Numbered from the stretch's first letter, positions 32,361 to 56,084 are shown. The stretch: DNA of 64,000 nt from a virus (IMGVR_UViG_3300021185_002017), one strand, 5' to 3'. Translations and numbers: made by a program. Notes: generated by a model not told the origin, from the sequence alone.

Positions 32361-33617
32361 TTATAATATATCGTATTGCTCTAAGAAGTTTTCGTACTCA
32401 TCACCTAAGTCTTTGCTTTCAACTGTAGGTGTATTTGTGTTTGCACCAAGTAAACAACTCTTAATTGTGCCGTACTCAAATTGGCTTAACTGACCACCTG
32501 ATGTAATTTTCTTACTAACATTTTGTAAGTATTCAGATAGTTTAGTATCGTTTGCAGAAAAACTTAATTGGTTAACTTGATGTCCAAGTCTTGCTTCTGG
32601 TGTAGCAAAGTCTACTAAGTCGTTTTCTTTTAGCAAGTCTGTTAGATTGGCAAATGATTCGTTTGCTACTGCTTTTGTAATATAACTTTCAAATGCTGTT
32701 TTCTTAAGTGATAAAGACTTTAGTTGTCCTAATACATTACCAACTTTGTCATCAAAATGCGATACTGTAAACTTATCTCTTAATTCTGCATCATCATCTT
32801 CAGATAACTCAACTGCTGTTGAAGTTAAGTTTTCAATTGTTGATTCGTATGTTTTAGCACCACTTAATTTCTTAAATGTATTTTTAATGCTTTCTATGTT
32901 CTCTACTGCTAGTTGAACATACTCTGCATTATCTTCGTTCATGATTTTTGCTGTTTTAACATAGTGGACAAACTCTCTAAGTTTCTTAAGGTCTTGTGCC
33001 ATCTCAACAATGTTAGTAGCCTGTTCATCAAAAACTTCACCACCTTTTTGTACATGGCGAGCCATTGCTCTAGCCATTGCTAAATTATTTTCAGGTAGTT
33101 TAAATCTTTCGTCGCCTCTTTGTATAAAGATACTGTGAATGTTTCTGCTTCTTGAACCACGCACTTCTTCATTAACTGCTTTTTTATGTTTAACAACAAT
33201 CTTTACATTGTCCAAAGATTGGTAACTTGTTTTGCTAGACCCTGACATTGTGTCGAATCCTTCTTTAATATCTGCCATGTCTTTCTCCGCTTGTTTTGCG
33301 ATATCCTGTTTCTCTCCTACAGCCTTAATTTTTTTACCAAATATCTTGTAGTCGAATTTCATTAAATAGTCTTGAGCAAGATCCTTTAACATTGTTCTCA
33401 CTTTATGCTCACTTAAATCTTCGCTAGTATTCAGTACTAATGTTGATGTTGCTGAATCTAGTCTAACTAAAATATTAGGTTCACTTACAACAAATCGTGT
33501 AGCATCAGTTGGGTCTATAACTTGCTTGCCGTCAGCACTAAAACTGTCCACGCCAAAACCAAACCCTTTTAGTATGTTAAATGTTTTTTCTGATATAACT
33601 GGGATATTTACGCTCAT
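32361..33617 (-). CDS. Hypothetical late protein downstream of terL
   Basis: 418 aa, with a GATAAATA-N5-ATG start. Confidence 0.75.
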   Translation of the reverse strand: MSVNIPVISEKTFNILKGFGFGVDSFSADGKQVIDPTDATRFVVSEPNILVRLDSATSTLVLNTSEDLSEHKVRTMLKDLAQDYLMKFDYKIFGKKIKAVGEKQDIAKQAEKDMADIKEGFDTMSGSSKTSYQSLDNVKIVVKHKKAVNEEVRGSRSRNIHSIFIQRGDERFKLPENNLAMARAMARHVQKGGEVFDEQATNIVEMAQDLKKLREFVHYVKTAKIMNEDNAEYVQLAVENIESIKNTFKKLSGAKTYESTIENLTSTAVELSEDDDAELRDKFTVSHFDDKVGNVLGQLKSLSLKKTAFESYITKAVANESFANLTDLLKENDLVDFATPEARLGHQVNQLSFSANDTKLSEYLQNVSKKITSGGQLSQFEYGTIKSCLLGANTNTPTVESKDLGDEYENFLEQYDIL

Positions 33618-33622
33618 AATAC

Positions 33623-33630
33623 TATTTATC
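33623..33630 (-). promoter_or_regulatory. Late promoter GATAAATA (N5 to ATG)
   Basis: GATAAATA-GTATT-ATG. Confidence 0.8.
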
Positions 33631-33633
33631 TAA

Positions 33634-35211
33634 TTAGAGGAATCCGACTGGCAACGGTGCGTCACCATCATCATCATAATCGTTATCAACAATACCACTG
33701 TTAACAACACTATAAACAGCATCTTCAAATGTGCTAATATAATTAACCATACGAACTTGTAACATCATTGCCATAACTAAGTCGTCCATTTCGCCTGGTT
33801 TAGCCTTAAAACTATTGCCTCTAGAAACAAAATTCTTTAATTCACTAATAAGTACTTTACTTTTAACATGTATCCTATCCTGCTCTAGCAGTCGTTTAAA
33901 GTTTAAACATGCTTCCATTTTACTTCTATGTCCAGTATGAAAACCTTTGCGTCCACGCTTTCCTGCAACTTTTTTAGGATCATGTAAGAACTCTCCAGGG
34001 AAGTTTTCTTCACCTGTGTCTCTAATAACCACAAGTGCCGCTTCACCAATAGTATTGTTCTCTACTGTCCAGTATAAGTTTTTACATCCGCTGTTACTAA
34101 GGTACATTAACATTTCCATTAGTATTCGCATTTGTCCTTCTACTGGAGTTCTATTGTGTGCCCATTCTCCTACTTGCGTCATAGTAGATACATTCATAAC
34201 TTGTATGGCTGCATTATCGCCGCCTGTGCCTGAACTTGGGTCTAATGTTAAACTATATATGTGCTGTGGATTAGGTTTATCGTACCAACGAGCTTCACCC
34301 ATTTTACCAATCGGATCAACTCCTTCCATTTCTACTAATCGTAATGGACTAATAAGTGTTTCATCATATATGATAAATTCACATTCGTGTTCTCGTCTAA
34401 ATCTTTCTTCGCCGATTCTTGCTCGTTCTGCAGATGCCCATTCATCATCACGCTCGGGGTGTGAACTCCAAGTTGACAAGTAACCTTTAAATCCGTTGCG
34501 TCCTACCTCTTGTTCATTACCGTACTCGTCAAACAACTTGTTTGCTTCTGCCCAAATAAGTGCAAAAGTATCATCGTCACTGTTAGGCGTACTTGTTACA
34601 ATACAAGCACCACCTGTACTTAGTGTAGGAGATAGTGCTGTCCAAAACTCTTTAGCAATACGAGGAGGCACAAACGCAAACTCGTCTAAGTAGATAAGTG
34701 TTAAGGACATACCACGACCAGTATTTTCAGTTGTTGTAGTACTTACAATACGACTACCATTATCAAATGTTATACTGCCTTTGTTGTATTCTGTAACACC
34801 TGCTCTAATATGATCAGGGGCACACTCGTATGCATAACGAACTCGTTGCATAATTTCACTAGCACCACTTGCTTTGTGTGCCGCTACAAGTATTGTGCTG
34901 TCTGGTTTGAACATAGCAAACCAAAGTAAGTATCCTGCCGCTACAGTGGTTTTACCCATCTGTCTGCCTAGCATGTTAATACTAAATCTATTATTGTTGT
35001 AGTTTTCTATTAAGTCTAACTGATAATCAAATGGTTCAAAATCTATGCCACCCCTAGTAGGATGTTGTATACGCATATGATTAACCATAAAGTATAATGC
35101 ACCTGTCTCAGGGTCAGCACAATTTTTAAAGTCTCGTAAAGTCTCAGGTGTATATGCTACTTTGGCATAACCTTGTTTAACTAGACCAGTATCAACTGTA
35201 CCTCTAGCCAT
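33634..35211 (-). CDS. terL: Terminase large subunit (T4 gp17-like)
   Basis: GRQMGKTT, IYLDEFAF, TSTPN, LDPSSGTGGDNAA, VENNTIG, DDLVMA. Confidence 0.95.
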   Translation of the reverse strand: MARGTVDTGLVKQGYAKVAYTPETLRDFKNCADPETGALYFMVNHMRIQHPTRGGIDFEPFDYQLDLIENYNNNRFSINMLGRQMGKTTVAAGYLLWFAMFKPDSTILVAAHKASGASEIMQRVRYAYECAPDHIRAGVTEYNKGSITFDNGSRIVSTTTTENTGRGMSLTLIYLDEFAFVPPRIAKEFWTALSPTLSTGGACIVTSTPNSDDDTFALIWAEANKLFDEYGNEQEVGRNGFKGYLSTWSSHPERDDEWASAERARIGEERFRREHECEFIIYDETLISPLRLVEMEGVDPIGKMGEARWYDKPNPQHIYSLTLDPSSGTGGDNAAIQVMNVSTMTQVGEWAHNRTPVEGQMRILMEMLMYLSNSGCKNLYWTVENNTIGEAALVVIRDTGEENFPGEFLHDPKKVAGKRGRKGFHTGHRSKMEACLNFKRLLEQDRIHVKSKVLISELKNFVSRGNSFKAKPGEMDDLVMAMMLQVRMVNYISTFEDAVYSVVNSGIVDNDYDDDGDAPLPVGFL

Positions 35212-36040
35212 TACCGAAACCTTCTATATTATTTTCTTTTGCGTATGTCATAATAGTGTTTGCAATTTGCATATGGCCTTCTCTACTAGGATGATGACGG
35301 TAGGTTTCTCCCGGGTCTGTGTGTACAAGATTCTGTCCACTAAGATGAGAGCATGGTATAAAGTTTTTACCAACATTTTGTGCTACCCTATCTAATATCA
35401 TTCTTCCTTGTTTATGTTTGCCAGGAACCCACCAGTATATGTAATTAATATTATTTTCTACAAAGTATTGTTTTCCACGATTAAAATGATCTGTTGCTTC
35501 AGCAATGTGTTTAAATACTTCTGATCTGTGATGATGTTTTCTAGGTGGATAATTTTGTGTTACTTCTTCGTAATACTTTTCCATTTCTTCATCAGGTATG
35601 TAATCAGGACTTACTTCTTCGCAATGCTGATCTAGGTTTTCATCTAAATGTCTTTTCAAAAACCAAAGTTTAAAGTTTTCAGGACTATCTAAGTCTTCTA
35701 ACTTAGCAAAAGATTCAACATACGATACTGGTTGTATTGTGTCGTTATTGATAGATGTTAGTGTTGACCACTGCTTGTATCTTACTGCTGTTAATTCAAT
35801 TACTACTGAAAGATTTTCTGTTGTGCCGTATTTTTCTTTGTACAGTTCACAGAAGTCTATGGTTTGATCGACACTTGATTGTGGTGGTTTACCTGTGTAA
35901 GAATGATTCCAAAACCGTTCTGGCTGGATATAATCCTTTAGATATGTTGCATAACTTGGTGAAACACCAGGGAAATGGGTTGTATTTTCTTTGCTATAAC
36001 CTGCGGCGAAACTTGCACCGTTAATATATAAATCTGACAT
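35204..36040 (-). CDS. SGNH/GDSL-hydrolase-like protein
   Basis: N-terminal LYINGASFAAG (GxS) and C-terminal HHPSREGHMQIA. Confidence 0.5.
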   Translation of the reverse strand: MSDLYINGASFAAGYSKENTTHFPGVSPSYATYLKDYIQPERFWNHSYTGKPPQSSVDQTIDFCELYKEKYGTTENLSVVIELTAVRYKQWSTLTSINNDTIQPVSYVESFAKLEDLDSPENFKLWFLKRHLDENLDQHCEEVSPDYIPDEEMEKYYEEVTQNYPPRKHHHRSEVFKHIAEATDHFNRGKQYFVENNINYIYWWVPGKHKQGRMILDRVAQNVGKNFIPCSHLSGQNLVHTDPGETYRHHPSREGHMQIANTIMTYAKENNIEGFGNG

Positions 36041-36045
36041 GCAGA

Positions 36046-36053
36046 TATTTATC
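36046..36053 (-). promoter_or_regulatory. Late promoter GATAAATA (N5 to ATG)
   Basis: GATAAATA-TCTGC-ATG. Confidence 0.8.
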
Positions 36054-36468
36054 AGCGGATCAGTTTGGCCTTAAGGGTATCTCGGAGTCTATCGATGATT
36101 GTTTGCTTATCAGTAGTATATGCAGGGTCTTCTTTGCTGTCATCTGCACATGCGTCACACTCTTCACCATCTTCATGATCGTGATCTGGGTGCATAATTA
36201 CTGCTGTTTCTGGCTCTTCGTCGCCTGATACTTCGCCTTCGGGCTCTTCTTGTTTAGGTAATGTAATACCTGCAAGTTTTAAAACATCGTGTAATTCTTG
36301 CATACTTGATGCATTAGCACTTACTGTTACAGAAGCATCACCTTTTCTTTTGGTTTTGCTGTAAGAAACATTTTCGCTGTCTTGATCTTGCCCGTCCATA
36401 CCAGGGTAGCCAGGCATCATGCCTTCCATTAAATTTAATAACTTTTTGTTCTCATCATGATTGTTCAT
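36052..36468 (-). CDS. Hypothetical acidic protein
   Basis: 138-aa ORF coupled to the upstream gene. Confidence 0.65.
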   Translation of the reverse strand: MNNHDENKKLLNLMEGMMPGYPGMDGQDQDSENVSYSKTKRKGDASVTVSANASSMQELHDVLKLAGITLPKQEEPEGEVSGDEEPETAVIMHPDHDHEDGEECDACADDSKEDPAYTTDKQTIIDRLRDTLKAKLIR

Positions 36469-37166
36469 TATACTTTCCCGCCACCTGATTGACTAATAAC
36501 ATCAACTTCTTTACTTTGCTCGCCTGTGCGACCCATGTTAGGCTGATTCATCATGTCGTCGTGCATTTGTCTTAAATCATCGCCCATTAGTTGAGATTTT
36601 GTTGGATAGTTAGTAAAGTAGTCTGCACCTTTTTCTGCTTTAATTTTTTCTAATTCTGCTAAAAACTTAGTGTTGTATGCTTCACCAAATAAGTCAAAGT
36701 CTTCAATTTCTGCATTTTCGTTTTCGTAATGGTCGAAACTTTCTTGAGCTAATTCTGCTTCATCTTCGTTTACCACTCTTCCGTCATCTCTTACTTTACG
36801 CTCTGCAGCCATATCGCTTTCGATTCTTCTTGGGTCGTTAACACCGTAGCATAATACTCTACTGTGATCTAAACCTAAGTTAACTGCTAACCATACTTCT
36901 AAAATTCTTTCATTGACTGGGTACTTTAGGATAATATCTGAACTACAAACTTCACTAGTGCATTGTACGCCTTTGTAACGCACAAACTCTATTGGGTTTT
37001 CTTCTATAGGTGTTCTTTTAAAAGGAGTAGCACTAACTAAGTTATACTTTGCTAAACAACTTTCAACTTTAGCCATGTGTTCAGCACCGCAATCTGCAGC
37101 AAACTTAATTCTGTACCCGTATTCCTTGTTAAAGGATTCTGTTATATATTCGTTTAATAATTTCAT
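36468..37166 (-). CDS. Hypothetical late protein
   Basis: GAGAG RBS and late promoter. N-terminus MKLLNEYITE. Confidence 0.7.
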   Translation of the reverse strand: MKLLNEYITESFNKEYGYRIKFAADCGAEHMAKVESCLAKYNLVSATPFKRTPIEENPIEFVRYKGVQCTSEVCSSDIILKYPVNERILEVWLAVNLGLDHSRVLCYGVNDPRRIESDMAAERKVRDDGRVVNEDEAELAQESFDHYENENAEIEDFDLFGEAYNTKFLAELEKIKAEKGADYFTNYPTKSQLMGDDLRQMHDDMMNQPNMGRTGEQSKEVDVISQSGGGKV

Positions 37167-37198
37167 ATTGTCTCTCTAAGTAATCCAATCGTTACAAC

Positions 37199-37206
37199 TA
37201 TTTATC
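37199..37206 (-). promoter_or_regulatory. Late promoter GATAAATA
   Basis: Exact motif. Confidence 0.75.
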
Positions 37207-37221
37207 AATTTGAAGCAAAAA

Positions 37222-37698
37222 TTATTCGCCCTTCATAATTTTTAATAATTCGTTACGATCATATATTTGAGTAGGATTGCCGGAACCGTCGTCTGAAGCA
37301 TCGTTTTGATTCTTTGTTTTATCTAATCTTGCTTTTTTAAGCATCAAATCTAGTTGTTGTAACTTTGCTTTTGTTTTTGTATCTTTTGCTTCGAGTGCTA
37401 TTTTTAACATATTACTAGCCTCGGCAAATATTTTACCTGCGGCCATATCGCTTACATTCATACCTAATTGCATGAGCTGTGCATAACTGTCTAGTGCTTT
37501 AGTAGAGATGTCGTCCATCTCAGTTTCGTGTTCACCTAATCCTCTAATCTCTTTAAATGCATCATTAATTTTTTCTGCAACTGTTAAGCCGTTATTTACT
37601 ATCTCAATCTCTTGCTTAGTTTCTTGAGGAACTTTTTCACTTGCTAGTGCTTCGTCCATAGGTGGTAAATTAAATTCTTCTTCTAGTTTCTTTGTCAT
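37222..37698 (-). CDS. Probable terminase small subunit (gp16-like)
   Basis: Helical 158-aa protein near terL, with MTKKLEEEFNLPP and ASNMLKIALEAK, and a C-terminal RNELLKIM. Confidence 0.55.
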   Translation of the reverse strand: MTKKLEEEFNLPPMDEALASEKVPQETKQEIEIVNNGLTVAEKINDAFKEIRGLGEHETEMDDISTKALDSYAQLMQLGMNVSDMAAGKIFAEASNMLKIALEAKDTKTKAKLQQLDLMLKKARLDKTKNQNDASDDGSGNPTQIYDRNELLKIMKGE

Positions 37699-38417
37699 TG
37701 TTTAAATCCTAGTTTGATCAACTGTATTGTTCTACCGCCTATGTCTAGAGGATGAAACAATGTTTCTCTTTGCTTCTCATGATGTATTGTGTGGAAGCCT
37801 TCACCGAATGTAAGTAGTCCTACAACTAAATCATTGTGTGCTTCGCCGTTCCTGTGTGAATAAGAAAACACTAAACTGCCTATTAACTTAGCAAAACCTG
37901 CCGGTGCTAACCAAGCATATATTAGTGCAAACGGATCTATTAGTGACAATACTAGTGCATAAAATGCTATAAACTCCCAATAGTACTTAACCTGTGCCCT
38001 ATATAAGTTATCCCTTAATAAGTTACCTGCCCATTTAACATTGGGTTCTGTAAACACTTGCAAGAAGTGTGCGTAAAAGTATCCTTTGAATAAAGGACTA
38101 TGTGGGTCTTTTTCTGTATCAGTAAATTTATGATGTGCTCTATGAGTTGCTACCCAAAGTATTGCAGGGCCTACCATCATTATGTGTGCAAAGAATAACA
38201 TTACTAGCTCAAACCATTTAGGACATTTAAACATCTTGTGACTTAAATATCTATGGTAACCTAATGTTAATCCAAACAACATTATACCAGTGTACATAGT
38301 AGCACCAATAGCCCACTGTGTCGCTGTTGCATACATGAACATGGGCACAATGGCTAACATGCTGGCTACTTGTCCAGCAAAAAGACTATATTGCATTCCT
38401 GCTTTACCTAATTGCAT
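37695..38417 (-). CDS. Membrane fatty-acid desaturase (delta-9/DesC-like)
   Basis: Three His boxes HRYLSH, HRAHH (KFTDTEKDPHSP) and GEGFHTIHH, plus TM helices. Confidence 0.9.
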   Translation of the reverse strand: MQLGKAGMQYSLFAGQVASMLAIVPMFMYATATQWAIGATMYTGIMLFGLTLGYHRYLSHKMFKCPKWFELVMLFFAHIMMVGPAILWVATHRAHHKFTDTEKDPHSPLFKGYFYAHFLQVFTEPNVKWAGNLLRDNLYRAQVKYYWEFIAFYALVLSLIDPFALIYAWLAPAGFAKLIGSLVFSYSHRNGEAHNDLVVGLLTFGEGFHTIHHEKQRETLFHPLDIGGRTIQLIKLGFKQ

Positions 38418-38422
38418 AATGC

Positions 38423-38430
38423 TATTTATC
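38423..38430 (-). promoter_or_regulatory. Late promoter GATAAATA (N5 to ATG)
   Basis: GATAAATA-GCATT-ATG. Confidence 0.8.
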
Positions 38431-38431
38431 G

Positions 38432-40181: not shown

Positions 40182-40817
40182 TTAACCTGCTGGGCTAGTA
40201 GTCACTAAACCTGTTGCTGCGGCTGTGAATGGTGATTCATTACCAGCTCTACCGTTAACGTTATTTGTACCCGCTTCGTGTGTAGCATTATCAAATCTTA
40301 ATGTTAAAGTAACAATCTGTGACTCAGCTGCTGAATAGTCGTGATCACCGTAAGTAACGTTTTGGATGAAACATCCTTCTAAACGCCAAAACTCAGTTGG
40401 TTTGCTTATTTCAGTACCATCTAGTACTTCAATGTCAGTATCAAATTTAAAGTCGTTACTTGAAGCAGCAGTTGTTTGCTGATAGTGGTTGACTTGTCTT
40501 TGTACTTGAGCACCAACAAGTTTAGCAACACTGTTAGTAATATCATCACGAATAACAACATCTACTGTTTGCCATGTATGCTTGCCTTGTACATAAATTT
40601 TACTGTTAAAACTGTGTACTTCTACTTCGTCAACACTAACAGATGGTCTAGTTACACTTTGAACATTTTGTGTTAGTGATGTTGAATTTTGTGAACCTGC
40701 AAAAGGCGACAAAAAGTTTACACGGAAACGATACTTTAACTTAGGCATTAAAATGCCTGCTTTTTTATTAGCCTCGTCTATCGGTACTCCGAACTTATCT
40801 TTAGTTGGATTTGCCAT
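40182..40817 (-). CDS. Tail tube protein (gp19-like)
   Basis: PKLKYRFRV, VTRPSV, GKHTWQTV, WRLEGCFI, LTLRFDNA. Downstream of the sheath gene. Confidence 0.85.
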   Translation of the reverse strand: MANPTKDKFGVPIDEANKKAGILMPKLKYRFRVNFLSPFAGSQNSTSLTQNVQSVTRPSVSVDEVEVHSFNSKIYVQGKHTWQTVDVVIRDDITNSVAKLVGAQVQRQVNHYQQTTAASSNDFKFDTDIEVLDGTEISKPTEFWRLEGCFIQNVTYGDHDYSAAESQIVTLTLRFDNATHEAGTNNVNGRAGNESPFTAAATGLVTTSPAG

Positions 40818-40860
40818 TTTTATATTCTCCTAAAAAATCTATAAATGTTTTATATGCTAT

Positions 40861-40868
40861 TATTTATC
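40861..40868 (-). promoter_or_regulatory. Late promoter GATAAATA
   Basis: Exact motif upstream of the tube gene. Confidence 0.8.
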
Positions 40869-40956: not shown

Positions 40957-43770
40957 TTAACCAGTTGAACCCAAAGTATTTTGAATTCTAATCGGAATGT
41001 ATATAAACTCAACTGCTTTGACTGGCTGTATAGCAACGTCAATGTGCAATTCGTTTCTATCAATTCTCGCTGGTGTGTTATTTGATTCGTCACAAACTGT
41101 AACATAGTCAAATAAACCACGCTGTTGTATTAAACCACTAAGTAGTCTGTCAACAACTGCTTTTGCGTTATTTCTAGTAACACTGTCGTTTGGCTCAAAT
41201 AAGAACGGCTTAACTGCATCGTCAAGTTGCTCTCTGAGATAGATAACTAATCTTGAAACATTAACTCTATCCAACGCACTTGCTGATGGGTTTAATGTCT
41301 TTTGACCAAACACACTTATGCCTCTGCCTGGGAATGATGCAATTGGGTTTACCTTGTTTAAGTATAAACCGTCACGCTGTCCTTCGTTCAATGAAACTGG
41401 GACATATTCACCTTCTGCTGAGTCTAAGTATCCTACTGAAGTTGCATTACTAACTAAACCACGTTGGAAACCAGCCGGTGCAAACCAAGGGAAAGCAACC
41501 TGGTCATTGTATGCGAATGTACGCAATGCCATATGTGATGCTGGTACCATAATGTTAGTACCATCTGTGTTAGTAGTTAAACCATGTGGGTAATAAACAC
41601 CTGCTTGAGCACTTGCACTTACAAGACCGTTTTCACCGTTTTCTACTGCTGTATTAGCATTAGTTGCCCATGCTGCTGTGCTAGTATTATCGGCTTTTAG
41701 TCTAAGTGGAGCGTCAACGATTGCAAAGACTGTGTCTTTTCTGTCAACACTTAATGCTAACATTTCGTCAGTTAATTCAGGATATCCTGGAACTGCTACT
41801 AAGTTAAAGCGGTTTGTTTCGTTACGAATGTCATCGTTAGATGCAATTGCTGCTTGTAAAGATTTAGTTACTGCTTTACGCTGTGCCTTTCTTAACAATA
41901 AGCCTGTGCCATCTGCTGCGTTACCTGAGAATGATACCCAAACATCAGCAGTTGTACTTGAATCTAATGCATAGCCTTTACGCCATTGCTTAACATTACC
42001 ACCTGAAGCTCTGTAGTTCCAACCTAACATACCTTGTGGGTATAAAGATGCACTTGGAGCGTCTGCATCTAATGAAGATGCTGCTGATTGTCTAAAGTCA
42101 TCAAATAAGATACCGTCTGGTGTGCTTTGATCACCAAGATCAACTAGATTCCAACTTGAACCATCATACTTATAAAGTTTTAAGTTTTCAGTGTCTGAGC
42201 TGTCTAACCATACATCGCCACTTGCTAAAGAAGTAGTACCGTCACTTTGTAGTGTTGGTTCTGTTGCTTTAGTTTGGAAATCAGTTGTTAAACTTACCCA
42301 TGTAGTACCGTTGTGCTCTAGTAAGTCTACATTGTTAGTGCTGATGTCTGCATCATACCATAATGTAGCATTTGCTGTTTCGCCTACTGGCTCAGTTGCA
42401 CTTGGTGTATTAGCTGCTAAAGAAACTTTCCAGTTACTTGTAGTACCTGCGTTTAAGTTTAAGTCACTTAAACTAACACATGCTGAGTTTGAACCTTCAG
42501 TAAGTTTAATGTCATTACCTTTAGTACTTGTAAATGTTATAACACCTGCGTTATTCGATACTGTCACTTGGTCTGCAAATGTAGTTGTTACATTAGCGGA
42601 AGATAGTGCTGATTGAATATCAGTAACAACATCATCAACTGAAATATTACCACTTGTTGTACTTGTGATGAATACATCAATTTGTGTTGGTGAGTTGTTG
42701 ATGTTAATTTGGAATGCTTCGTCTACTGAATTAACTTTAGTATCAGGTATAGCAGTGTCGCTTACTGCGGAAGAACTTCCGAATGTAAAGCTGCTTTCAC
42801 CATTCCACATTTTTAATCTAAATGATGCAACTCTTGCGAAAGAGTCGTTAACTTGATCTAACCATAAAGCACCTGAGTTCAAAGAACCTGCTTTTGTATG
42901 ATAATCATATGCGTCTGATGCTTCACTAAGTAATGGAGCGTCCTTGCTTACGAACTGTCCTGAAACTGCATCGTACTGCTTAACTTGAACGTTTGCGCCA
43001 TTGTTAGGTGCTGTTGCTTGTAAGAATACATCACCTGCTGATAATGCACCACCTGAGAACTTAGTTGAAGGAATAGTTGTATGAGTTGCCCACTGATAGT
43101 CTGCACTTGATTTAGCACTTGACCATGCAGAAGAACCTACACTATACCAGTTACCTGCTAGTTTTTCATATATTGATATGAATGAAGCCTGAGCACCTGT
43201 GCTGTCAACTGTAACTGCTGCAAAAGAGCCGTTAGTTGAGAACGATGTTTTAGGTACAGTATTTGCATACACATCATTTTTACCTGCTAATAGAACTGTT
43301 TGTGTTACCCACTTGCTGCCGTCATATTCTTTAATACCGAATGTTGAACTGCCTGTGTCAACCCAAATAGCGTCTGCTGCTGGTTTAGCTGCTGGTGCAG
43401 TTGCACTTGCTTCTAATTGACCTAAGTCTACATCTGCTCTAAGTACATAAGCTCTGTTTGATAAGCCTAAGAAACTGTAAGCTGCTGCAAGACCGTATTC
43501 GTTTGTTTCGTCTCCGTGAACTGGTGTTCCGCCACTTGTTTTAAATGATGGGTTACCGTAGTTTTGTAGTAATTCACGCTGACTAGTTATATTATATAAC
43601 TTGTTTGCTGTTGCCTTTGTAGTATAAGCGGAAGTCGAAGTTCCATCTGGTGCTGTCTTATCTTGTGCTGTTGCAATTACGATAAGAGGAACAGTACCAG
43701 CACCTGCAGGTGCGTAGAAACTTTCGTCTGATACACTAATACTAACGCCTGGCGATACTAATGTTGCCAT
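40957..43770 (-). CDS. Tail sheath protein (gp18-like), 937 aa
   Basis: MATLVSPGVSIS, FPWFAPAGFQRG, YLNKVNPI, FGQKTL, DRVNVSRL, FLFEPND, VCDESNNTP. Confidence 0.95.
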   Translation of the reverse strand: MATLVSPGVSISVSDESFYAPAGAGTVPLIVIATAQDKTAPDGTSTSAYTTKATANKLYNITSQRELLQNYGNPSFKTSGGTPVHGDETNEYGLAAAYSFLGLSNRAYVLRADVDLGQLEASATAPAAKPAADAIWVDTGSSTFGIKEYDGSKWVTQTVLLAGKNDVYANTVPKTSFSTNGSFAAVTVDSTGAQASFISIYEKLAGNWYSVGSSAWSSAKSSADYQWATHTTIPSTKFSGGALSAGDVFLQATAPNNGANVQVKQYDAVSGQFVSKDAPLLSEASDAYDYHTKAGSLNSGALWLDQVNDSFARVASFRLKMWNGESSFTFGSSSAVSDTAIPDTKVNSVDEAFQININNSPTQIDVFITSTTSGNISVDDVVTDIQSALSSANVTTTFADQVTVSNNAGVITFTSTKGNDIKLTEGSNSACVSLSDLNLNAGTTSNWKVSLAANTPSATEPVGETANATLWYDADISTNNVDLLEHNGTTWVSLTTDFQTKATEPTLQSDGTTSLASGDVWLDSSDTENLKLYKYDGSSWNLVDLGDQSTPDGILFDDFRQSAASSLDADAPSASLYPQGMLGWNYRASGGNVKQWRKGYALDSSTTADVWVSFSGNAADGTGLLLRKAQRKAVTKSLQAAIASNDDIRNETNRFNLVAVPGYPELTDEMLALSVDRKDTVFAIVDAPLRLKADNTSTAAWATNANTAVENGENGLVSASAQAGVYYPHGLTTNTDGTNIMVPASHMALRTFAYNDQVAFPWFAPAGFQRGLVSNATSVGYLDSAEGEYVPVSLNEGQRDGLYLNKVNPIASFPGRGISVFGQKTLNPSASALDRVNVSRLVIYLREQLDDAVKPFLFEPNDSVTRNNAKAVVDRLLSGLIQQRGLFDYVTVCDESNNTPARIDRNELHIDVAIQPVKAVEFIYIPIRIQNTLGSTG

Positions 43771-43815
43771 TTTGTTTTCTCCTAATATATTAAGATACGA
43801 ATGATCGTATGCACT

Positions 43816-43823
43816 TATTTATC
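43816..43823 (-). promoter_or_regulatory. Late promoter GATAAATA
   Basis: Exact motif upstream of the sheath gene. Confidence 0.8.
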
Positions 43824-44540: not shown

Positions 44541-45299
44541 TTAACCTATTACAAATCCTAGTGGGTCACTGCCTTCTTCCATCATGTGAACCGCTTCATT
44601 TAGTTTCTCTAACTCTGCTTGAGCTTCTGATTTCAGTGCATCACCGTTAAGAGTAATTGCACCACCTGCACCTGGTAAGCCTGAACTATATTTGCTTCTT
44701 GCTTCACCTAGCATAAACTTACTTTGTGCTAGTGCGTATGCACTTAACCAGTCACTTGCATAGACATCTTTTAACAGTATCATTTCTGGTATAAAGTTAT
44801 ATACACCTACTGCTACTTCTTCGTTATGTCTAACATTTCTTAAAATCTGTAATACTTTGCTGTTGCGATTCCAAATAAAGTTATATTCACTACCAAATAT
44901 ACGCCCTACTGTTTCTTTGTATTGTGAGAACGCATCATAAACTGCTAGGCCGCCTATTTGTCCTGCCTGCATCATGTACATGTTGTTGAATGCAACATCA
45001 AAAGGATCAAAGTTTACGCCGCCACTGTTAGTACCAATACCTCTACGATAAAGTCTTCTAACTTCCATTACTTCGTCTGGTAAAACATATTCAGTTACAT
45101 TTTCTTGAGTAGTAATAAAGATCATACTTTCTTCAACTGCACCAGAACTAAGTTGTCTATACTTAGCAAGTGCCTTGTTGATAGCAACATCGTAATGTTC
45201 TCTATCGAGTTCTACATCAACAATACCATCTGCTAAACGCAGTTTGATTTCGCTAATAAGTTGCTCTCTGTTTTCGTAACCTATTTTATTAATCGCCAT
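44541..45299 (-). CDS. Neck protein (gp13-like)
   Basis: LRLADGIVDVEL, YALAQSKFMLGEARSKY, LPGAGGAITLNGD. Confidence 0.8.
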   Translation of the reverse strand: MAINKIGYENREQLISEIKLRLADGIVDVELDREHYDVAINKALAKYRQLSSGAVEESMIFITTQENVTEYVLPDEVMEVRRLYRRGIGTNSGGVNFDPFDVAFNNMYMMQAGQIGGLAVYDAFSQYKETVGRIFGSEYNFIWNRNSKVLQILRNVRHNEEVAVGVYNFIPEMILLKDVYASDWLSAYALAQSKFMLGEARSKYSSGLPGAGGAITLNGDALKSEAQAELEKLNEAVHMMEEGSDPLGFVIG

Positions 45300-45304
45300 A
45301 ACAC

Positions 45305-45312
45305 TATTTATC
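45305..45312 (-). promoter_or_regulatory. Late promoter GATAAATA (N5 to ATG)
   Basis: GATAAATA-GTGTT-ATG. Confidence 0.8.
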
Positions 45313-45314
45313 TA

Positions 45315-48606: not shown

Positions 48607-48607
48607 T

Positions 48608-49525: not shown

Positions 49526-49550
49526 TTGTGTGTCCTCATTTGATAGTAAC

Positions 49551-49558
49551 TATTTAGC
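49551..49558 (-). promoter_or_regulatory. Late promoter variant GCTAAATA
   Basis: Only promoter-like motif seen upstream of the epimerase-rSAM pair. Confidence 0.5.
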
Positions 49559-49577
49559 AGATAGCGTTTTAGATCTT

Positions 49578-49585
49578 GATAAATA
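49578..49585 (+). promoter_or_regulatory. Late promoter GATAAATA (N5 to ATG)
   Basis: GATAAATA-GTGTT-ATG at 49591. Confidence 0.8.
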
Positions 49586-49590
49586 GTGTT

Positions 49591-50652
49591 ATGCCAAGAT
49601 TGAGTTTATGGAATCCAACAAAGACAAACGATTTCGATTTTATTGATCGAGTCGTTGGTGAACACCTCCACGCGGGTGGGACCGGTGTGCATTTGCACAA
49701 ATATTTAGGTACACAGGCTATTGCAGACACAAAAGACCCTACAAGGCCTGGAACTGACGGCAGTAACACTGAAGTTTTTATACAAGACTTGCTATTCTTA
49801 GAAAATAGAGATAGACGATACGATAAAAACATATACGAGTTGCGTGGACAATACAACATAGGCGACAATGACGGATTTGATTTAACACAATTCGGAATGT
49901 TTTTGGCAAACGATACCCTGTTTATGAATTTCCATATAGAAAGTATGGTTGAAACAGTAGGTAGAAAATTAATGGCTGGTGATGTAATCGAATTACCTCA
50001 CTTACGAGACGACTTATTATTAGGTAGTGACGAAGCCATAAACAGATTTTATGTAGTAACGGATGCTAGTAGACCAGCAGAAGGTTTTGATCCTCGTTGG
50101 TGGCCTCATTTATGGAGAGTTAAACTAGGTCCTATTACAGACTCACAAGAATACAGAGATATTCTTGGTACCGGCGAGGAAGAAGGCGATCTTAGAAATC
50201 TTATTAGCACTTATGCTGACGAAATTGCAATTAGTGAAGCAATCACTGAAGCAGCTGAAAAAGATGTACCGTATAATCCTCAGCAGAACGATACAGCACA
50301 TTTATATGTAGATGAAAATGCAAAAGGCAAACCTAGAATTGACTTTGCTTCTGCAGATGGTACTCCACCAAACGGAGCATCTATAGTTGGTAGTGGGGAA
50401 TCATTCCCAACTAGTGGTACAACAGATGGTGATTACTTTTTGCGTACAGACTTTGTGCCTAATAGATTATTCGAAAAGCAAGGTTCTCGTTGGAAATTTA
50501 TTAAATCAAATAGCAGTGGGTCGTGGACGGCTGCAAATAGAATACTTACAGGCTTTATTAACAATGAAAATCTTGTTAGCAACGCAGACGGGACTATTAC
50601 AGGAGAAAAAGTCAATCTAAGCCAGGTAGTTAAGCCTAAGACGGATAACTAA
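49591..50652 (+). CDS. Neck/head-closure protein (gp14-like)
   Basis: MPRLSLW start, DLLFLENRDRRYD, FDLTQFGMF, GDVIELPHL, WWPHLWRVK. Adjacent to gp15. Confidence 0.7.
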   Translation: MPRLSLWNPTKTNDFDFIDRVVGEHLHAGGTGVHLHKYLGTQAIADTKDPTRPGTDGSNTEVFIQDLLFLENRDRRYDKNIYELRGQYNIGDNDGFDLTQFGMFLANDTLFMNFHIESMVETVGRKLMAGDVIELPHLRDDLLLGSDEAINRFYVVTDASRPAEGFDPRWWPHLWRVKLGPITDSQEYRDILGTGEEEGDLRNLISTYADEIAISEAITEAAEKDVPYNPQQNDTAHLYVDENAKGKPRIDFASADGTPPNGASIVGSGESFPTSGTTDGDYFLRTDFVPNRLFEKQGSRWKFIKSNSSGSWTAANRILTGFINNENLVSNADGTITGEKVNLSQVVKPKTDN

Positions 50653-50681
50653 TGTTTAGTATTTTTAACAGAGGAAAGAAA

Positions 50682-51125
50682 ATGAACAGAGAATCAGTAT
50701 TTGAACAACTAAAAATTGACGAAGGAGTTGTTTATGAAATTTATAAAGACCATTTGGGCTACCCAACTTTCGGAGTTGGCCACCTGGTCCTCGAATCAGA
50801 TCCAGAGTTTGGACAAGAAGTCGGAACACCTGTCTCAGAAGACAGAGTTAGAGACTGCTTTGAACGTGACCTTGACACCTCAATTAGTGAGTGTGTTGCT
50901 TTATATGGAGAACAGTTCAATGAATGGCCAGGAGAAGTGCAAGAGATCTTAGTGAACATGATGTTCAATATGGGTCGTACTCGTTTAGGCAAGTTTCAAA
51001 ACTTCCGTAAAGCACTAGAAGCTCAGGATTGGAAACAAGCAGGAATAGAAGGCAGAGATAGCCGTTGGCACAAACAGGTAACTAACCGTGCTGAAAGACT
51101 AATGGTAAGATTAGAACAAGTATAA
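50682..51125 (+). CDS. T4-type lysozyme (GH24)
   Basis: DEGVVYEIYKDHLGYPTFGVGHL (E-x8-D-x5-T), NMMFNMG, SRWHKQVTNRA. Start moved to 50682 (GAGG RBS). Confidence 0.92.
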   Translation: MNRESVFEQLKIDEGVVYEIYKDHLGYPTFGVGHLVLESDPEFGQEVGTPVSEDRVRDCFERDLDTSISECVALYGEQFNEWPGEVQEILVNMMFNMGRTRLGKFQNFRKALEAQDWKQAGIEGRDSRWHKQVTNRAERLMVRLEQV

Positions 51126-51131
51126 GGCATT

Positions 51132-51575
51132 ATGGAAGAGATGAGAGAACTTAATGAGCAACGAGTTTGCGAATTATTAAATGAAATAGTAGAACTAGAA
51201 ATGGCTGGTGTTGTAAGATACGCACACAGTTCATTGATGATTACTGGACCATATAGATTACCTATTGTAACTTTTTTGCAAGAACAAGCAAATGAAAGTT
51301 TACAACATGCATTACAAGCAGGCGAATTTATAACAGGATTCGAAGGTCATCCAAGCCAAAAGATTTCTAAAATTGAAGAGAATCACGACCACAGTGTATT
51401 ACAAATACTCACCGAAAGTTTAGAACACGAAATGAATGCTGTCAGCAAGTACAAGGAACTATTAAATGAAGTTGCTGATGCGAGTATTATGTTAGAAGAA
51501 TATGCTAGAGGTCAAATTGGCATGGAAGAGCAACATGCTTTAGAAATCAAAAAGATGCTCAAGGACTTTGGATAA
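51132..51575 (+). CDS. Bacterioferritin/ferritin-like four-helix-bundle protein
   Basis: ELEMAGVVRY, NESLQHA, LEHEMNAVSKY, MEEQHA. Confidence 0.85.
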   Translation: MEEMRELNEQRVCELLNEIVELEMAGVVRYAHSSLMITGPYRLPIVTFLQEQANESLQHALQAGEFITGFEGHPSQKISKIEENHDHSVLQILTESLEHEMNAVSKYKELLNEVADASIMLEEYARGQIGMEEQHALEIKKMLKDFG

Positions 51576-51590
51576 CAAAGGTAACATATA

Positions 51591-52940
51591 ATGGCAAAGA
51601 AAAACTTAGATTACTGGTACGATGGCCAAGTTAAAAGATACTTGCAACAACTTATCAGAGTCTTTTCACATTTTCAAGTAGCAGAAAATACATCTAATGG
51701 TGTACACTACAATACTGTGCCTTGCCGTTATGCAGATCAAAGTAGAATGGTTGCACAAATACTACGCAATAACTCAGAGAATGTTGTTGCTAGTGCGCCT
51801 TTTATAGCATGTAGTATACAGAGTTTACAGGTTGCTAGAGATAGAATCATGGAGCCTAACTTTGTGAAAACTTCACAGGTTGCTGAACGAGAATTTAATA
51901 CTGCTACAGGACAATATGAATCAGGGCAAGGAAACTTGTACACTGTACAGCGATATATGCCTGTACCGTATAATTTAACATTACAAGTAGATATATGGAC
52001 AACCAACACTGATACTAAACTGCAAATATTAGAGCAGTTAATGATATTATTCAATCCTACTATACAGTTACAATCAAACAATAATCCATTAGATTGGACT
52101 AATATATTTGAACTTGAATTAACTGATGTGCAGTGGAGCAGTAGAAGTATACCGCAAGGCGTTGACGAATCAATTGATGTTGCAACAATGAGTTTTGCAA
52201 TACCTATTTGGCTTAGTCCACCTGCTAAAGTTAAGAAGCAAACTATTATACAACAAATAGTAACTGACTTACACGAAACAAACGATATAGATAGTTTAGG
52301 GTTTGATTCAGACTTAGCAGACTTTTTTGCACAGGTACCAGACACTGCTGAAATTGTTACAACACCAGGTGATTACAAATTACAAATTGACGGTGCTAGT
52401 GCGGTATTGTTAGATAGTGCATACAACGGAGTTCGTTGGGCTGACTTAATAGAGATGCAAGGCGAGTTAACAGCAACATCTAAACTTAAATTAAACTTAA
52501 CTAATGACAGCGATAATGATTTAGATGCTGTTATAGGAAGTGTATCATATAACACAATTGACCCAACAAAATTAATATTTAATATTGACCCAGAAACACT
52601 TCCAGCAGATACATTAGATAATGTAGATAAAATATTAGATCCTAGAACATCGTACCCAAGCGATGGCAGTTTAGCATCAGCAGAAACAGGACAAAGATAT
52701 TTAATAACAGAAACACTTACAAAGTCAGGATATCCTAATTGGGATATTGAGGCTAATGAAAATGATATCATAGAATATGATGGTACAAAATGGGTAGTAT
52801 CTTTTAATGCTAGTAACATTGATACTTTACAATATACAACAAACACATACACAAATAAGCAATATAAATGGTCCAATGGTTCTTGGACTAGCAGTCACGA
52901 AGGTGTTTACAATGCAACCTTTTGGCGTTTGTTGCTTTAA
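51591..52940 (+). CDS. Tail terminator/sheath stabiliser (gp15-like) with C-terminal extension
   Basis: MPVPYNLTLQVDIWTTN, LQILEQLMILFNP, WLSPPAKVKK. Confidence 0.8.
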   Translation: MAKKNLDYWYDGQVKRYLQQLIRVFSHFQVAENTSNGVHYNTVPCRYADQSRMVAQILRNNSENVVASAPFIACSIQSLQVARDRIMEPNFVKTSQVAEREFNTATGQYESGQGNLYTVQRYMPVPYNLTLQVDIWTTNTDTKLQILEQLMILFNPTIQLQSNNNPLDWTNIFELELTDVQWSSRSIPQGVDESIDVATMSFAIPIWLSPPAKVKKQTIIQQIVTDLHETNDIDSLGFDSDLADFFAQVPDTAEIVTTPGDYKLQIDGASAVLLDSAYNGVRWADLIEMQGELTATSKLKLNLTNDSDNDLDAVIGSVSYNTIDPTKLIFNIDPETLPADTLDNVDKILDPRTSYPSDGSLASAETGQRYLITETLTKSGYPNWDIEANENDIIEYDGTKWVVSFNASNIDTLQYTTNTYTNKQYKWSNGSWTSSHEGVYNATFWRLLL

Positions 52941-52951
52941 GAGGAAAATAA

Positions 52952-53374
52952 ATGACTACAGCAGCAGGAGTTTTATTTCTTGCTAAAGACACAGGAAGAT
53001 GTCTTTTTCAATTAAGAAAGGCTGAAAAGAGATTTAAAAACACATGGGGTTTCTGGGGAGGCACCATGCACAAAGCCGAAACGCCATATGCTTGTATCCA
53101 ACGAGAGTTAAAAGAAGAAATTGGGTTCGTTCCAGAACTTCAAAAATTAAATCCTATCGATGTATTCCAAAGTAAAGATAAAAAGTTTTTTTACTACAGT
53201 TTCATATATGTAGTAGACAAAGAATTTTCACCTATATTAAATAACGAGAGTGCAGGTTACTGCTGGGTTGATATTGATTGGTGGCCTTCTCCGTTGCACA
53301 CAGGAGCAAAGGTTACTCTTGTTAACAACAAAGGTGCAGAAAAAATTCACACAATCCTAGAAGTAAATTCCTGA
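52952..53374 (+). CDS. NUDIX hydrolase
   Basis: WGFWGGTMHKAETPYACIQRELKEEIG Nudix box. Confidence 0.9.
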   Translation: MTTAAGVLFLAKDTGRCLFQLRKAEKRFKNTWGFWGGTMHKAETPYACIQRELKEEIGFVPELQKLNPIDVFQSKDKKFFYYSFIYVVDKEFSPILNNESAGYCWVDIDWWPSPLHTGAKVTLVNNKGAEKIHTILEVNS

Positions 53375-53380
53375 TAAATA
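53373..53380 (+). promoter_or_regulatory. Late promoter GATAAATA (N6 to ATG)
   Basis: GATAAATA-TATAAC-ATG. Confidence 0.7.
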
Positions 53381-53386
53381 TATAAC

Positions 53387-54013
53387 ATGAAAGGCGAGGT
53401 AATAAACTTCGAAGTTCTACGGATACAAAGCGAACTTGATAATTATAGTCGCACAGAAACCTTACCACACCTACTGTTGAACGGGGCATATGATTTAGAT
53501 GAAATATTTGATGCCTACTACGATAAACTAACACCCAAACACAAACTAATTGCAGATCACTTAAAGAGTAACTATGCTACTACTTTAACTAACTGTATAA
53601 CAAGTTTGCGTATGGCTTTGAAAAAAGAGTATGTGGCGGTGATGAAGGATTTATCAACGGAACATGAATCGTTTATATTTGACCATGTTATGAACAAATA
53701 TAGACCGGGCATAAATCCTGTTAGGGCATTGTATTACGAGATACGAGAAGTAAAAAGAAATTTTAGTAGTGAGAACGACTATCATGTCTGGCTGACTGAA
53801 TTACTTACAGACAAAGGCTTTAGAAATATTCTCGAAGATGCTCTAAGAAAAGATGTAACTCGATTAGAAAAAATTATTGCTAGATACTATTTGCCAATAG
53901 TTAAAAACTCTACTGATATACCGCTTGAACTGTTTCATGCTAAACAAACTATTAGTGACTTCCGTCACTATGCTGGTGTGTTTAGAGATATAGACGGTTC
54001 TATGTTTGAGTAA
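53387..54013 (+). CDS. Hypothetical helical protein
   Basis: 208-aa ORF. Its stop abuts the convergent cyclase stop. Confidence 0.65.
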   Translation: MKGEVINFEVLRIQSELDNYSRTETLPHLLLNGAYDLDEIFDAYYDKLTPKHKLIADHLKSNYATTLTNCITSLRMALKKEYVAVMKDLSTEHESFIFDHVMNKYRPGINPVRALYYEIREVKRNFSSENDYHVWLTELLTDKGFRNILEDALRKDVTRLEKIIARYYLPIVKNSTDIPLELFHAKQTISDFRHYAGVFRDIDGSMFE

Positions 54014-56071
54014 TTATTTAGAAGTAGCAATAAAAACACCGTCCCAATCTTTAGGCAGTGTTTGAGTCTTTTGAAATTCGCAACGCTCAATCCACATATC
54101 ATAATAACCTTTCATCTTACCTTCAAAGGCATCGTGTAGTTGCTCACATAATATAATTGCTTTATCAAAGTTTTGTTTACGATATTGCATGTGCATATCT
54201 TCGTGCATTTGTCTTGCTTTTGCATACTTGCCTACTTTAATATCAAGTACTGTGTATATTTCGATGCCCACAGTCTTTCCTTTTACTGCTAGGTCATCTA
54301 CTTTAAGATAAAAGAATTTATTATGTGTGTGCTTGTAAGTGTCTCCTCCCACTAACAACAAGCAACCATATTCCTTACACTTACTTTCTATTCTCGCGGC
54401 AGTACTAACTGCGTCTCCGAGTATGTCATATGAATGTCTGGCAGTGGAGCCCATCTCCCCAATATAACCGAGCCCAGTATTAATACCAGCACCCATACCA
54501 ACTGGCGGTCTACCTTCTTTAACAATTTTATCATTGAATTCCTCTACTGCTCTAAGCATTAGTAATCCTGTGTTCACAGCACTTGCAGGATGATCTGGGT
54601 CGTCCATTGGTGCATTGTGTATGTGCATACTTGCATCGCCAATATACTTAATAACCATTCCGTCTGCATCAAGTATAGGCTGTGTAATGGCATCCATGTA
54701 ACCATTCATTATTTTTGTTAGTCCTTGAACATCATCACCAAAACTTTCTCCTAGTGGGGTGAAGCCACGCAAATCTGAGAAGCATATACTAACTTCTTTT
54801 TTCATACCTTGTTTAATTAAGTCTGGATTTTCTTGCAACATTCTAACAACTGTAGGAGAGGCATATCCAGCAAATTGTTTCTGTATTTCTGCTCGTAGTT
54901 TAAACTGTATCCAAAAGTTATTAAAACTTGCCTGTGTAAAGATTAAGAATGCACTTATTGCAGGAAAAGTAGCATCAAATAAAACTAAGTTTGCTGTATA
55001 AGAATGTACACTATAATATACAATTCCGCCTATAATAGTGACTGTAGTTACTAATCCTGCCCATATAGGCAACTTATATATTGCTAAAGCAATTAATATC
55101 ATGCTCAACAACGCACACAGAAGCTCTGTAAGCAACGATAATTCAGATCTGGTAATGTTACTCCCGTCTATAAAATTCTGTAGCATAGACGCTTGTATTT
55201 GCTGTGGTAGTACGTTGCCTCTAGGTGTGGGTACCGGATTGGCAACGCCTTCTGCACTCACACCCACAATAACGAACTTTCCGCCTAAGTTAGGCAGTTC
55301 ACTCGCATCTACATATTCGTGTTCTTCAAAAGTGTTATTAAATCGTATATATGCTGTACCATTTGGTGTTGTTACTATTGGTTCAAAGGGTGGTACTGCA
55401 AACTCTTGTATTCCTATTTCACTAGTCTTTAAAATGTAACTAGGTTTTTGTGTATAAGTCCTTAACATCTCAATAGCAAAACTAGGATATATCTTTCCCT
55501 CTACTCCAATCGCTAGTGGGTAAGTTCTTGTTTGGTTATCAGGCTGAGGAGCACTTGCTACTACTCCAATACCTGCGGCTACACTTTCTAGTGGTTCAAT
55601 ATTCGTTACGAGATTCGGCCATGTCAGCAAGTAGTTGGTAGCGGGTACTGGGCCTATCGTTCCTGTACCAATGTGCGGACCTGTACTCTTTACTCCTCTG
55701 GAAGATGGGGTTTGGGATAAAACTATGCCGTTGTCTTTCATCCAACTGGAAAGTACTGGATCTCCTCCAAACCGGTCCGTCTCCGGAAACATCACTGTTA
55801 GCCCTATCATTCCTGCATTCTTGTTTCTCAGGTCTGATATTAGTTGTGCAAAATTCTGTCTTGGCCATGGCCATTGTCCCCACTGTTGTAGGCTTTTTTC
55901 GCCAATGTTTATTACTACAACTTCGTTACTTTGTTTAACTTCATCTAATTGTTGGTAGTAATCGAATGTCTGTGAACGCAGACTTTGAACTGGTGTTGGG
56001 TCAGCAACTTTGAGAGCTGTAAGTAATACTATAGATATTGCTACGGCCCAGCCGCTGTATAACCATTTCAT
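54014..56071 (-). CDS. CHASE2-domain membrane class III adenylate cyclase
   Basis: N-terminal TM, CHASE2 (GQWPWPRQNFAQLI, VVASAPQPDNQTRTYPL), three TM helices, then cyclase FSDLRGFT, KYIGD, GINTG, YDILGDAVSTAARIE. Confidence 0.93.
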   Translation of the reverse strand: MKWLYSGWAVAISIVLLTALKVADPTPVQSLRSQTFDYYQQLDEVKQSNEVVVINIGEKSLQQWGQWPWPRQNFAQLISDLRNKNAGMIGLTVMFPETDRFGGDPVLSSWMKDNGIVLSQTPSSRGVKSTGPHIGTGTIGPVPATNYLLTWPNLVTNIEPLESVAAGIGVVASAPQPDNQTRTYPLAIGVEGKIYPSFAIEMLRTYTQKPSYILKTSEIGIQEFAVPPFEPIVTTPNGTAYIRFNNTFEEHEYVDASELPNLGGKFVIVGVSAEGVANPVPTPRGNVLPQQIQASMLQNFIDGSNITRSELSLLTELLCALLSMILIALAIYKLPIWAGLVTTVTIIGGIVYYSVHSYTANLVLFDATFPAISAFLIFTQASFNNFWIQFKLRAEIQKQFAGYASPTVVRMLQENPDLIKQGMKKEVSICFSDLRGFTPLGESFGDDVQGLTKIMNGYMDAITQPILDADGMVIKYIGDASMHIHNAPMDDPDHPASAVNTGLLMLRAVEEFNDKIVKEGRPPVGMGAGINTGLGYIGEMGSTARHSYDILGDAVSTAARIESKCKEYGCLLLVGGDTYKHTHNKFFYLKVDDLAVKGKTVGIEIYTVLDIKVGKYAKARQMHEDMHMQYRKQNFDKAIILCEQLHDAFEGKMKGYYDMWIERCEFQKTQTLPKDWDGVFIATSK

Positions 56072-56076
56072 ATCAA

Positions 56077-56084
56077 TATTTATC
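56077..56084 (-). promoter_or_regulatory. Late promoter GATAAATA (N5 to ATG)
   Basis: GATAAATA-TTGAT-ATG. Confidence 0.8.

Follow-up and report, generated by a model that had tools for sequence, protein, structure and literature searches.

In a 64,000-nucleotide (nt) stretch of viral DNA, IMGVR_UViG_3300021185_002017 (hereafter the window), the octamer GATAAATA, which resembles the late promoter box of phage T4, lies exactly 5 nt before the ATG of six genes, an arrangement (box-N5-ATG, with N5 standing for the nucleotides in between) that is kept at orthologous genes in relatives of this virus. We consider it probable that gp55-type late transcription starts on the AUG itself, which would provide low-copy and accessory genes with leaderless mRNAs, the sheath, the tube and small abundant proteins being led by a Shine-Dalgarno (SD) sequence. 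The window belongs to an uncultured marine jumbo myophage. Its tail sheath, of 937 amino acids (aa), shares 42% identity with that of Pseudomonas phage PA5oct and 37-44% with those of Rak2-like phages, and the order adaptor, deoxynucleoside monophosphate (dNMP) kinase, sheath and tube matches that of PA5oct.

Late-type boxes in the window

The octamer GATAAATA occurs 16 times in the window against 4.6 expected copies, a number reached by none of 100 shuffles, and each of the copies faces a downstream gene. The combination GATAAATA-N5-ATG is found six times (0.09 expected; 0/100 dinucleotide shuffles reach six), together with a single GATAAATA-N6-ATG and a single GGTAAATA-N5-ATG. All coordinates of the original prediction for the six sites (33617, 36040, 38417, 45299, 49591 and 56071) were confirmed, and both the N6 site at 53387 and the GGTAAATA site at 16503 are also present. 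Every hugged ATG opens a long open reading frame (ORF) of 123-685 aa and, in agreement with the claim that these starts have no SD, only the AT-rich box precedes them, which leaves no room for such a sequence. The sites are the following:

33615..33630, - strand: putative leaderless unit; GATAAATA at 33630-33623, 5 nt, ATG at 33617-33615; virion structural protein 32361-33617 (phrog_13484)
36038..36053, - strand: putative leaderless unit before the 278-aa gene 35204-36040, whose box has its first two bases in common with the TGA of the preceding gene
38415..38430, - strand: putative leaderless unit before the fatty-acid desaturase 37695-38417 (PF00487), an accessory gene
45297..45312, - strand: putative leaderless unit before the head-tail adaptor (Ad2/gp13-like) 44541-45299 (phrog_211)
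49578..49593, + strand: putative leaderless unit heading the + strand gene block; virion structural protein 49591-50652 (phrog_11591)
56069..56084, - strand: putative leaderless unit before the CHASE2-adenylate/guanylate cyclase 54014-56071; the box contains the stop of the preceding gene
53373..53389, + strand: GATAAATA-N6-ATG before the 208-aa gene 53387-54013
16490..16505, + strand: GGTAAATA-N5-ATG; the ATG at 16503 is in frame within ORF 16440-16874

The upstream neighbour of the gene at 49591 is divergent, and therefore translational coupling is impossible there. At 53387, the leader would have 0 or 1 nt, as set by a start at A 53387 or at C 53386, whereas the site at 16503 stands back to back with a minus-strand box at 16480-16473. 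As for the gene identities proposed before, those of the desaturase (PF00487) and of the cyclase (CHASE2 and PF00211) were upheld, and the SGNH label for 53387-54013 was not confirmed, as this gene gave no Pfam or PHROG match. In the cyclase (54014-56071), which stands behind a putative leaderless late box, a CHASE2 sensor is fused to an adenylate/guanylate cyclase.

The nine other GATAAATA boxes of the window lie 24-49 nt before start codons, with AGGAG or GGAG in most of the leaders. On the other hand, the canonical T4 box TATAAATA is depleted (1 copy vs 7.5 expected), which together with the enrichment of GATAAATA suggests either a late sigma factor that prefers G as the first base or an avoidance of the T form.

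Spacing, conservation and context in related phages

The sheath protein used as a query gave more than 593 IMG/VR contigs, and 80 of them (54-84% identity, 1.07 Mb) were kept as relatives. In these contigs the distance from GATAAATA to an ORF-opening ATG is bimodal: out of 337 boxes, 120 stand 5 nt from the ATG and five 6-9 nt from it, the interval of 10-15 nt is empty, and the remaining ones form a broad hump at 21-50 nt, accompanied by AGGAG. A peak at 5 in such a histogram was what the original prediction called for. The spike at N5 was also observed with AATAAATA, TATAAATA and CATAAATA, and altogether about 40% of the gene-proximal boxes of the relatives hug an ATG. The empty zone at 10-15 nt implies that the leader is either missing or long enough to hold an SD; leaders of about 5-10 nt, unfit for either translation route, are wholly missing from the spacing data. 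In the contigs of five larger relatives, box-N5-ATG was found 32 times against two for a backwards control.

The consensus of the box is NATAAATA; its ATAAATA core is fixed by the search itself, and G is the first base in 70-78% of the sites. In sequence logos of 196 unique leadered sites, positions +5 and +6 after the box are a pyrimidine (91%) and an A (84%), and in 148 unique hugging sites the very same place is taken by T or C and by the A of the ATG. This pyrimidine-A pair corresponds to the usual initiator, with a pyrimidine at -1 and a purine at +1, and agrees with the geometry of the T4 late promoter, whose box occupies -13 to -6. No -35 element is apparent in either set of logos, since no position upstream of the box exceeds 65%, and the divergent pairs described below accommodate two promoters in 60-70 nt. 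A contact with A at +4, as proposed for the leaderless mRNA of lambda cI (PMC10491246), is not mirrored in our sites, where +4 is A in 29% of the cases.

The arrangement is kept at many individual genes. Box-N5-ATG precedes the adaptor in 62/64 orthologs, even where the upstream flank has freely diverged, the desaturase in 8/9 and the structural protein 49591-50652 in 11/13. For the gene 35204-36040 we find seven N5 and two N6 sites among 14 orthologs, and for 53387-54013 two N5 and three N6 among five. The structural protein 32361-33617 shows box-N5-ATG in 20/25 orthologs and a box-N5-AGGAG leader in the other five; in these swapped orthologs (box-gtatt-AGGAG...ATG) the same A opens a short SD leader, with the box-to-A geometry unchanged. 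Altogether, box-N5-ATG is conserved across 54-98% protein identity, and 0-2 of the boxed orthologs show an SD-like word. In the jumbo clade, 15 gene families near the sheath show the arrangement, and the counts across loci, which come from these roughly 15 families and nine others in phage HTVC008M (see below), are phylogenetically non-independent. The opposite behaviour is seen for the sheath and the tube, which never have a hugging box (0/78 and 0/72 orthologs) and are always led by an SD (78/78 and 72/72), bearing out the two-tier design of the original prediction; the gene 36468-37166 likewise has its box further upstream in 39/39 orthologs.

Two genes lacking a box in the window are boxed elsewhere, namely the large terminase (N5 in 14 and N6 in seven of 29 relatives) and the gene 37222-37698 (31/43). 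The latter case is instructive. In the seven relatives where both the desaturase and gene 37222 are present, the desaturase has box-N5-ATG and gene 37222 has none, which is also the arrangement of the window, where gene 37222 begins (37698) within the last bases of the desaturase (37695). When the desaturase is missing, the box belongs to gene 37222 itself in 31/36 relatives. The newcomer thus lies directly on the promoter-ATG junction, and these patterns support that the desaturase took over the promoter of the next gene, 37222-37698. The suggestion that the box acts as a cassette for inserted genes finds support in this regard for the desaturase; it does not as a special property of such genes, since the adaptor and the terminase are also in the class.

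The genomic context of the sites offers a second line of evidence. Of 177 sites, 158 are preceded by a co-directional gene whose end lies 4-24 nt upstream. Another 17 sites have no co-directional upstream ORF, including divergent pairs with 60-70 nt between two boxed ATGs, and at three sites a GC-rich hairpin and a T8 run directly abut the box. In the divergent and terminator-abutted contexts, the gene could only be expressed from a transcript beginning within a few bases of the ATG. Divergent pairs with a box-N5 of its own at each ATG occur in L065, L066, L052 and L069 (for example L065, + 3294 / - 11107), and the 60-70 nt between such starts may constitute a minimal bidirectional late promoter region. 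Moreover, the codon at box+5 was ATG in 179 cases and never GTG or TTG, whereas 24 GTG and two TTG were counted among 483 SD-led starts; the exclusive use of ATG fits leaderless initiation, which is known to depend on AUG. Over their first 45 nt, the boxed ORFs are also more weakly folded than SD-led starts or internal coding windows (mean of -3.2 vs -5.0 kcal/mol) and richer in A (43% vs 36%).

Beyond the jumbo clade, phage records were compared by the number of box-N5-ATG sites against that of the backwards control:

HTVC008M (SAR11): 9 vs 1
Mosig (SAR11): 8 vs 0
Melnitz (OM43): 4 vs 0
T4: 2 vs 0 (169 kb)
S-PM2: 2 vs 1
P-SSM2: 3 vs 3
Syn9: 1 vs 1
P-TIM40: 0 vs 1
Cr30: 0 vs 0
GAP32: 2 vs 0
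PA5oct: 8 vs 4, no enrichment

The layout is common to HTVC008M, Mosig and Melnitz and not to T4, the three cyanophages, P-TIM40, GAP32 or Cr30. All nine sites of HTVC008M (genes starting at 6280, 7562, 16007(-), 18916(-), 19456, 31132, 49760, 75559 and 142360) coincide with annotated starts of coding sequences, including the genes for the tape measure, a gp2-like protein, the baseplate and CsgF. These genes are non-homologous to the families of the jumbo clade, and the layout therefore recurs at different genes. The annotation of HTVC008M also includes late-transcription factors resembling gp55 and gp33, as well as a DNA polymerase processivity factor (the role of the gp45 clamp). In PA5oct there is one clear case, the structural protein gp262, which starts exactly at box-N5-ATG (NC_071039 144973-144987) with a divergent spacer of 62 nt, and the adaptor gene of this phage shows AATAAATA-gtgtt-A followed by a 35-nt leader with an SD. 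Another box-N5-ATG of PA5oct (NC_071039 180250-180264) falls five codons inside the annotated start of gp213, which may be mis-called.

The ribosomal protein bS21 (PF01165, over the cut-off) was found in the records of HTVC008M, Mosig, Melnitz and PA5oct, and is absent from the six other phages scanned (T4, S-PM2, P-SSM2, Syn9, P-TIM40 and GAP32). A link between bS21 and the layout is suggestive, coming from few independent lineages and with PA5oct having bS21 without enrichment. Neither a homologue of HTVC008M gp55 nor bS21 was matched in the contigs of five relatives, which are 13-28% complete, in small fragments around the structural genes, so that this result says nothing about absence.

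Candidate leadered promoters and metatranscriptomic contigs

The boxes of the window placed further upstream, all of them GATAAATA on the - strand, define the following candidate leadered promoters:

43816..43823, -: tail sheath promoter; gene 40957-43770, predicted start A 43810, 40-nt leader with AGGAG
40861..40868, -: tail tube promoter; gene 40182-40817, predicted start A 40855, 38-nt leader with AGGAG
37199..37206, -: promoter of gene 36468-37166; predicted start 37193, 27-nt leader
7442-7435, 7085-7078, 6720-6713 and 6260-6253, -: four leadered promoters before small genes
13248..13255, -: leadered promoter with a 23-nt leader, AGGAG and a GTG start at 13219
16473..16480, -: leadered promoter of gene 15660-16448, with a 19-nt leader

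Three of the four boxes in 6253..7442 are followed by small Met-Ala-Gln proteins (starts at 7404, 7028 and 6667), and terminator-like hairpins lie immediately before two of these four promoters. Between the adaptor and the sheath we find a dNMP-kinase-like gene (PF21448, 43875-44537), an odd site for an enzyme of nucleotide metabolism. It is equally placed in PA5oct, where its product was detected in virions by mass spectrometry.

Assembled contigs of 11 metatranscriptomic runs cover the region, and four runs from four studies were compared. Among the 32 of 142 pieces listed, adaptor contigs end at 45287, 45276, 45270 and 45275, between 12 and 29 nt inside the adaptor ORF, for which the 5' end is predicted at 45299. 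Sheath contigs end at 43772-43799 (predicted start 43810), tube contigs at 40828-40830 in 3/4 runs (predicted 40855; one contig of X3 reaches 40886), and those of gene 36468 at 37180 in two runs (predicted 37193). The RNA contigs listed thus end 11-38 nt short of the predicted starts, a weak hint only, as contigs cannot show starts, strand or level. One contig, 35731-37180, bridges the site at 36040, which makes read-through RNA probable there. In two studies (X4 and X7), contigs also join 41067 to 41189, skipping 121 nt of the sheath gene, and several loose contig ends fall at 40982-41227; this probably reflects a strain-variable segment of the sheath rather than splicing.

Proposed leaderless late transcription, its alternatives and known systems

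Late transcription in T4 depends on the sigma factor gp55, the co-activator gp33 and the clamp gp45. In our proposal, NATAAATA (mostly GATAAATA) would be the version of the T4 late promoter used by this clade, read by the host RNA polymerase with a late sigma of the gp55 type. Transcription would start at the A that follows a pyrimidine and lies six bases past the box, and in the roughly 40% of gene-proximal boxes that hug a gene this A would be that of the ATG, yielding a pppAUG mRNA with neither a 5' untranslated region nor an SD, to be translated by the 5'-terminal-AUG (leaderless, 70S-type) route. High-output genes, such as those of the sheath, the tube and the small abundant proteins, would instead carry leaders of 19-44 nt with AGGAG. 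Most hugging boxes, 4-24 nt behind an upstream stop, would act as internal promoters giving SD-less genes a translatable transcript of their own, and a newly inserted gene could take over such a box, as the desaturase seems to have done. The late timing of the boxed genes is assumed here by analogy with T4. A large class of leaderless late transcripts, the central idea of the original prediction, finds support at the sequence level in the spacing, the initiator, the orthologs, the divergent and terminator-abutted contexts, the exclusive use of ATG and the A-rich, unstructured 5' coding ends.

Several points speak against this proposal. The start of transcription is deduced from promoter geometry and the initiator, the late timing comes from analogy with T4, and the counts of loci are not phylogenetically independent. 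Upstream stops at 4-24 nt are found at 158/177 sites, where termination-reinitiation could contribute, and the bridging contig at 36040 means that read-through transcripts probably exist. These last observations lead to an alternative, which we consider unlikely, where the boxes are real late promoters and the abutted gene is translated mainly from a read-through polycistronic mRNA by termination-reinitiation, the 5'-AUG transcript being either a poorly translated by-product or of use only to genes further downstream. It gains from the many other genes of the window that overlap by ATGA or have neither a box nor a strong SD, as well as from the close upstream ORFs and the contig 35731-37180. 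However, reinitiation needs neither the exact N5 spacing nor the empty zone at 10-15 nt, the 17 sites described above have no upstream co-directional gene, three boxes are directly preceded by a hairpin and T-run, and the ATG-only rule and weak 5' structure fit recognition of a 5' end better.

That the AT-rich box is instead an RNA-level, non-SD landing site for the ribosome (a bS1-type A/U-rich enhancer) and not a promoter seems very unlikely to us. The box is indeed A/U-rich and located where a ribosome-binding site would be, and some marine hosts use the SD weakly, but the same octamer with its pyrimidine-A is also found 24-49 nt ahead of SD-led genes and immediately behind terminators, which is the behaviour of a promoter, and an enhancer would tolerate variable spacing, when the observed one is fixed to a single base. 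As for a functionless by-product of base composition and stop codons (TAA, TAG and TGA overlap the box) in tightly packed AT-rich genes, we see practically no probability in it. It is true that the box includes TAA, frequently has TAG at its end and in many cases overlaps the stop of the gene before it; nevertheless, this explanation is effectively refuted by the shuffles (0/100), the spacing in the relatives, the backwards control (2 vs 32) and the adaptor orthologs, 62/64 of which keep the full octamer and its spacing despite diverged flanks, and T4, the cyanophages and GAP32 are AT-rich without showing the layout.

Transcription starting on the AUG, our preferred explanation, combines features of known systems. 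Compared with T4 late promoters, the boxes share an octamer with an ATAAATA core, the lack of a conserved -35, the location before structural genes and the spacing to the presumed start, and they differ in being mostly G-first and in hugging the ATG in about 40% of gene-proximal cases. Poxvirus late promoters have a TAAATG initiator that overlaps the start codon, and their transcripts gain a slipped poly(A) leader. They resemble our case in that part of a viral late promoter is joined to the ATG of late genes, although the polymerase is unrelated and the box described here lies 5 nt upstream, with no slippage signal evident. The closest cultured relatives by sheath and synteny are the Rak2-like phages CBB and GAP32 together with PA5oct, and CBB has been described as having 35 ATAAATA sites upstream of structural genes as well as a gp55-like sigma (PMC5259590). 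The pelagimyophages HTVC008M and Mosig, together with Melnitz, share box-N5-ATG as well as genes for curli, cyclase, porin and bS21, and in HTVC008M the cyclase lies beside the curli genes; unlike the jumbo clade, they are Kyanoviridae-like phages of 141-147 kb that use mostly TATAAATA and have other families of leaderless genes. Prediction of late promoters in pelagimyophages was reported as unsuccessful (PMC7029224); searches limited to intergenic DNA may miss boxes that overlap an upstream stop codon. In Actinobacteria and Deinococcus, leaderless genes have a -10 box located 6-8 nt upstream of the start codon (GeneMarkS-2 group C, PMC6028130), and cI of lambda, transcribed from PRM, is a known leaderless mRNA (PMC10491246). 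Both examples share with our sites a box at a fixed short distance from the start, the lack of an SD and the AUG dependence, but here the element would be that of a phage late sigma, not a sigma70 -10, and the class would be a temporal one in a virus whose other late genes use a strong AGGAG. Nothing relevant on leaderless late mRNAs came out of full-text literature searches covering T4-like, SAR11 and jumbo phages, the paper on AR9 holding just the remark that phage transcripts are often leaderless, and those on PA5oct and RaK2 no usable data on late promoters or start sites. The T4-type late box and the leaderless mRNA are each known, and it is their systematic fusion in a phage late class that appears to be unreported.

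If leaderless late transcription is confirmed, this would define late promoters for an abundant marine phage group, and a single virus would use two routes of translation initiation within one temporal class. This would offer a simple way of setting protein ratios, with low-copy adaptor, terminase and accessory enzymes on one side and hundreds of copies of sheath and tube on the other. Start codons would be better called in these genomes, and the ribosomes of SAR11-like hosts would have to translate 5'-AUG mRNAs efficiently. A further idea, which we hold to be quite unlikely, is that leaderless late genes are one half of a takeover of translation, where the phage bS21 retunes the anti-SD/mRNA-exit region of the host ribosome late and favours 5'-AUG mRNAs. 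In such a case, the trait would be shared by phages of streamlined marine heterotrophs (SAR11, OM43) and could serve as a marker for host prediction.

Finally, about 270 nt without genes (32089-32360) lie behind a terminator-like hairpin in the window and contain a CATAAATA box at 32236-32229 (-), with an ATG 3 nt on and then a long A/T-rich run. No ORF of at least 50 aa follows this box, and the stretch could correspond to a small RNA or a very short ORF controlled by a late promoter.

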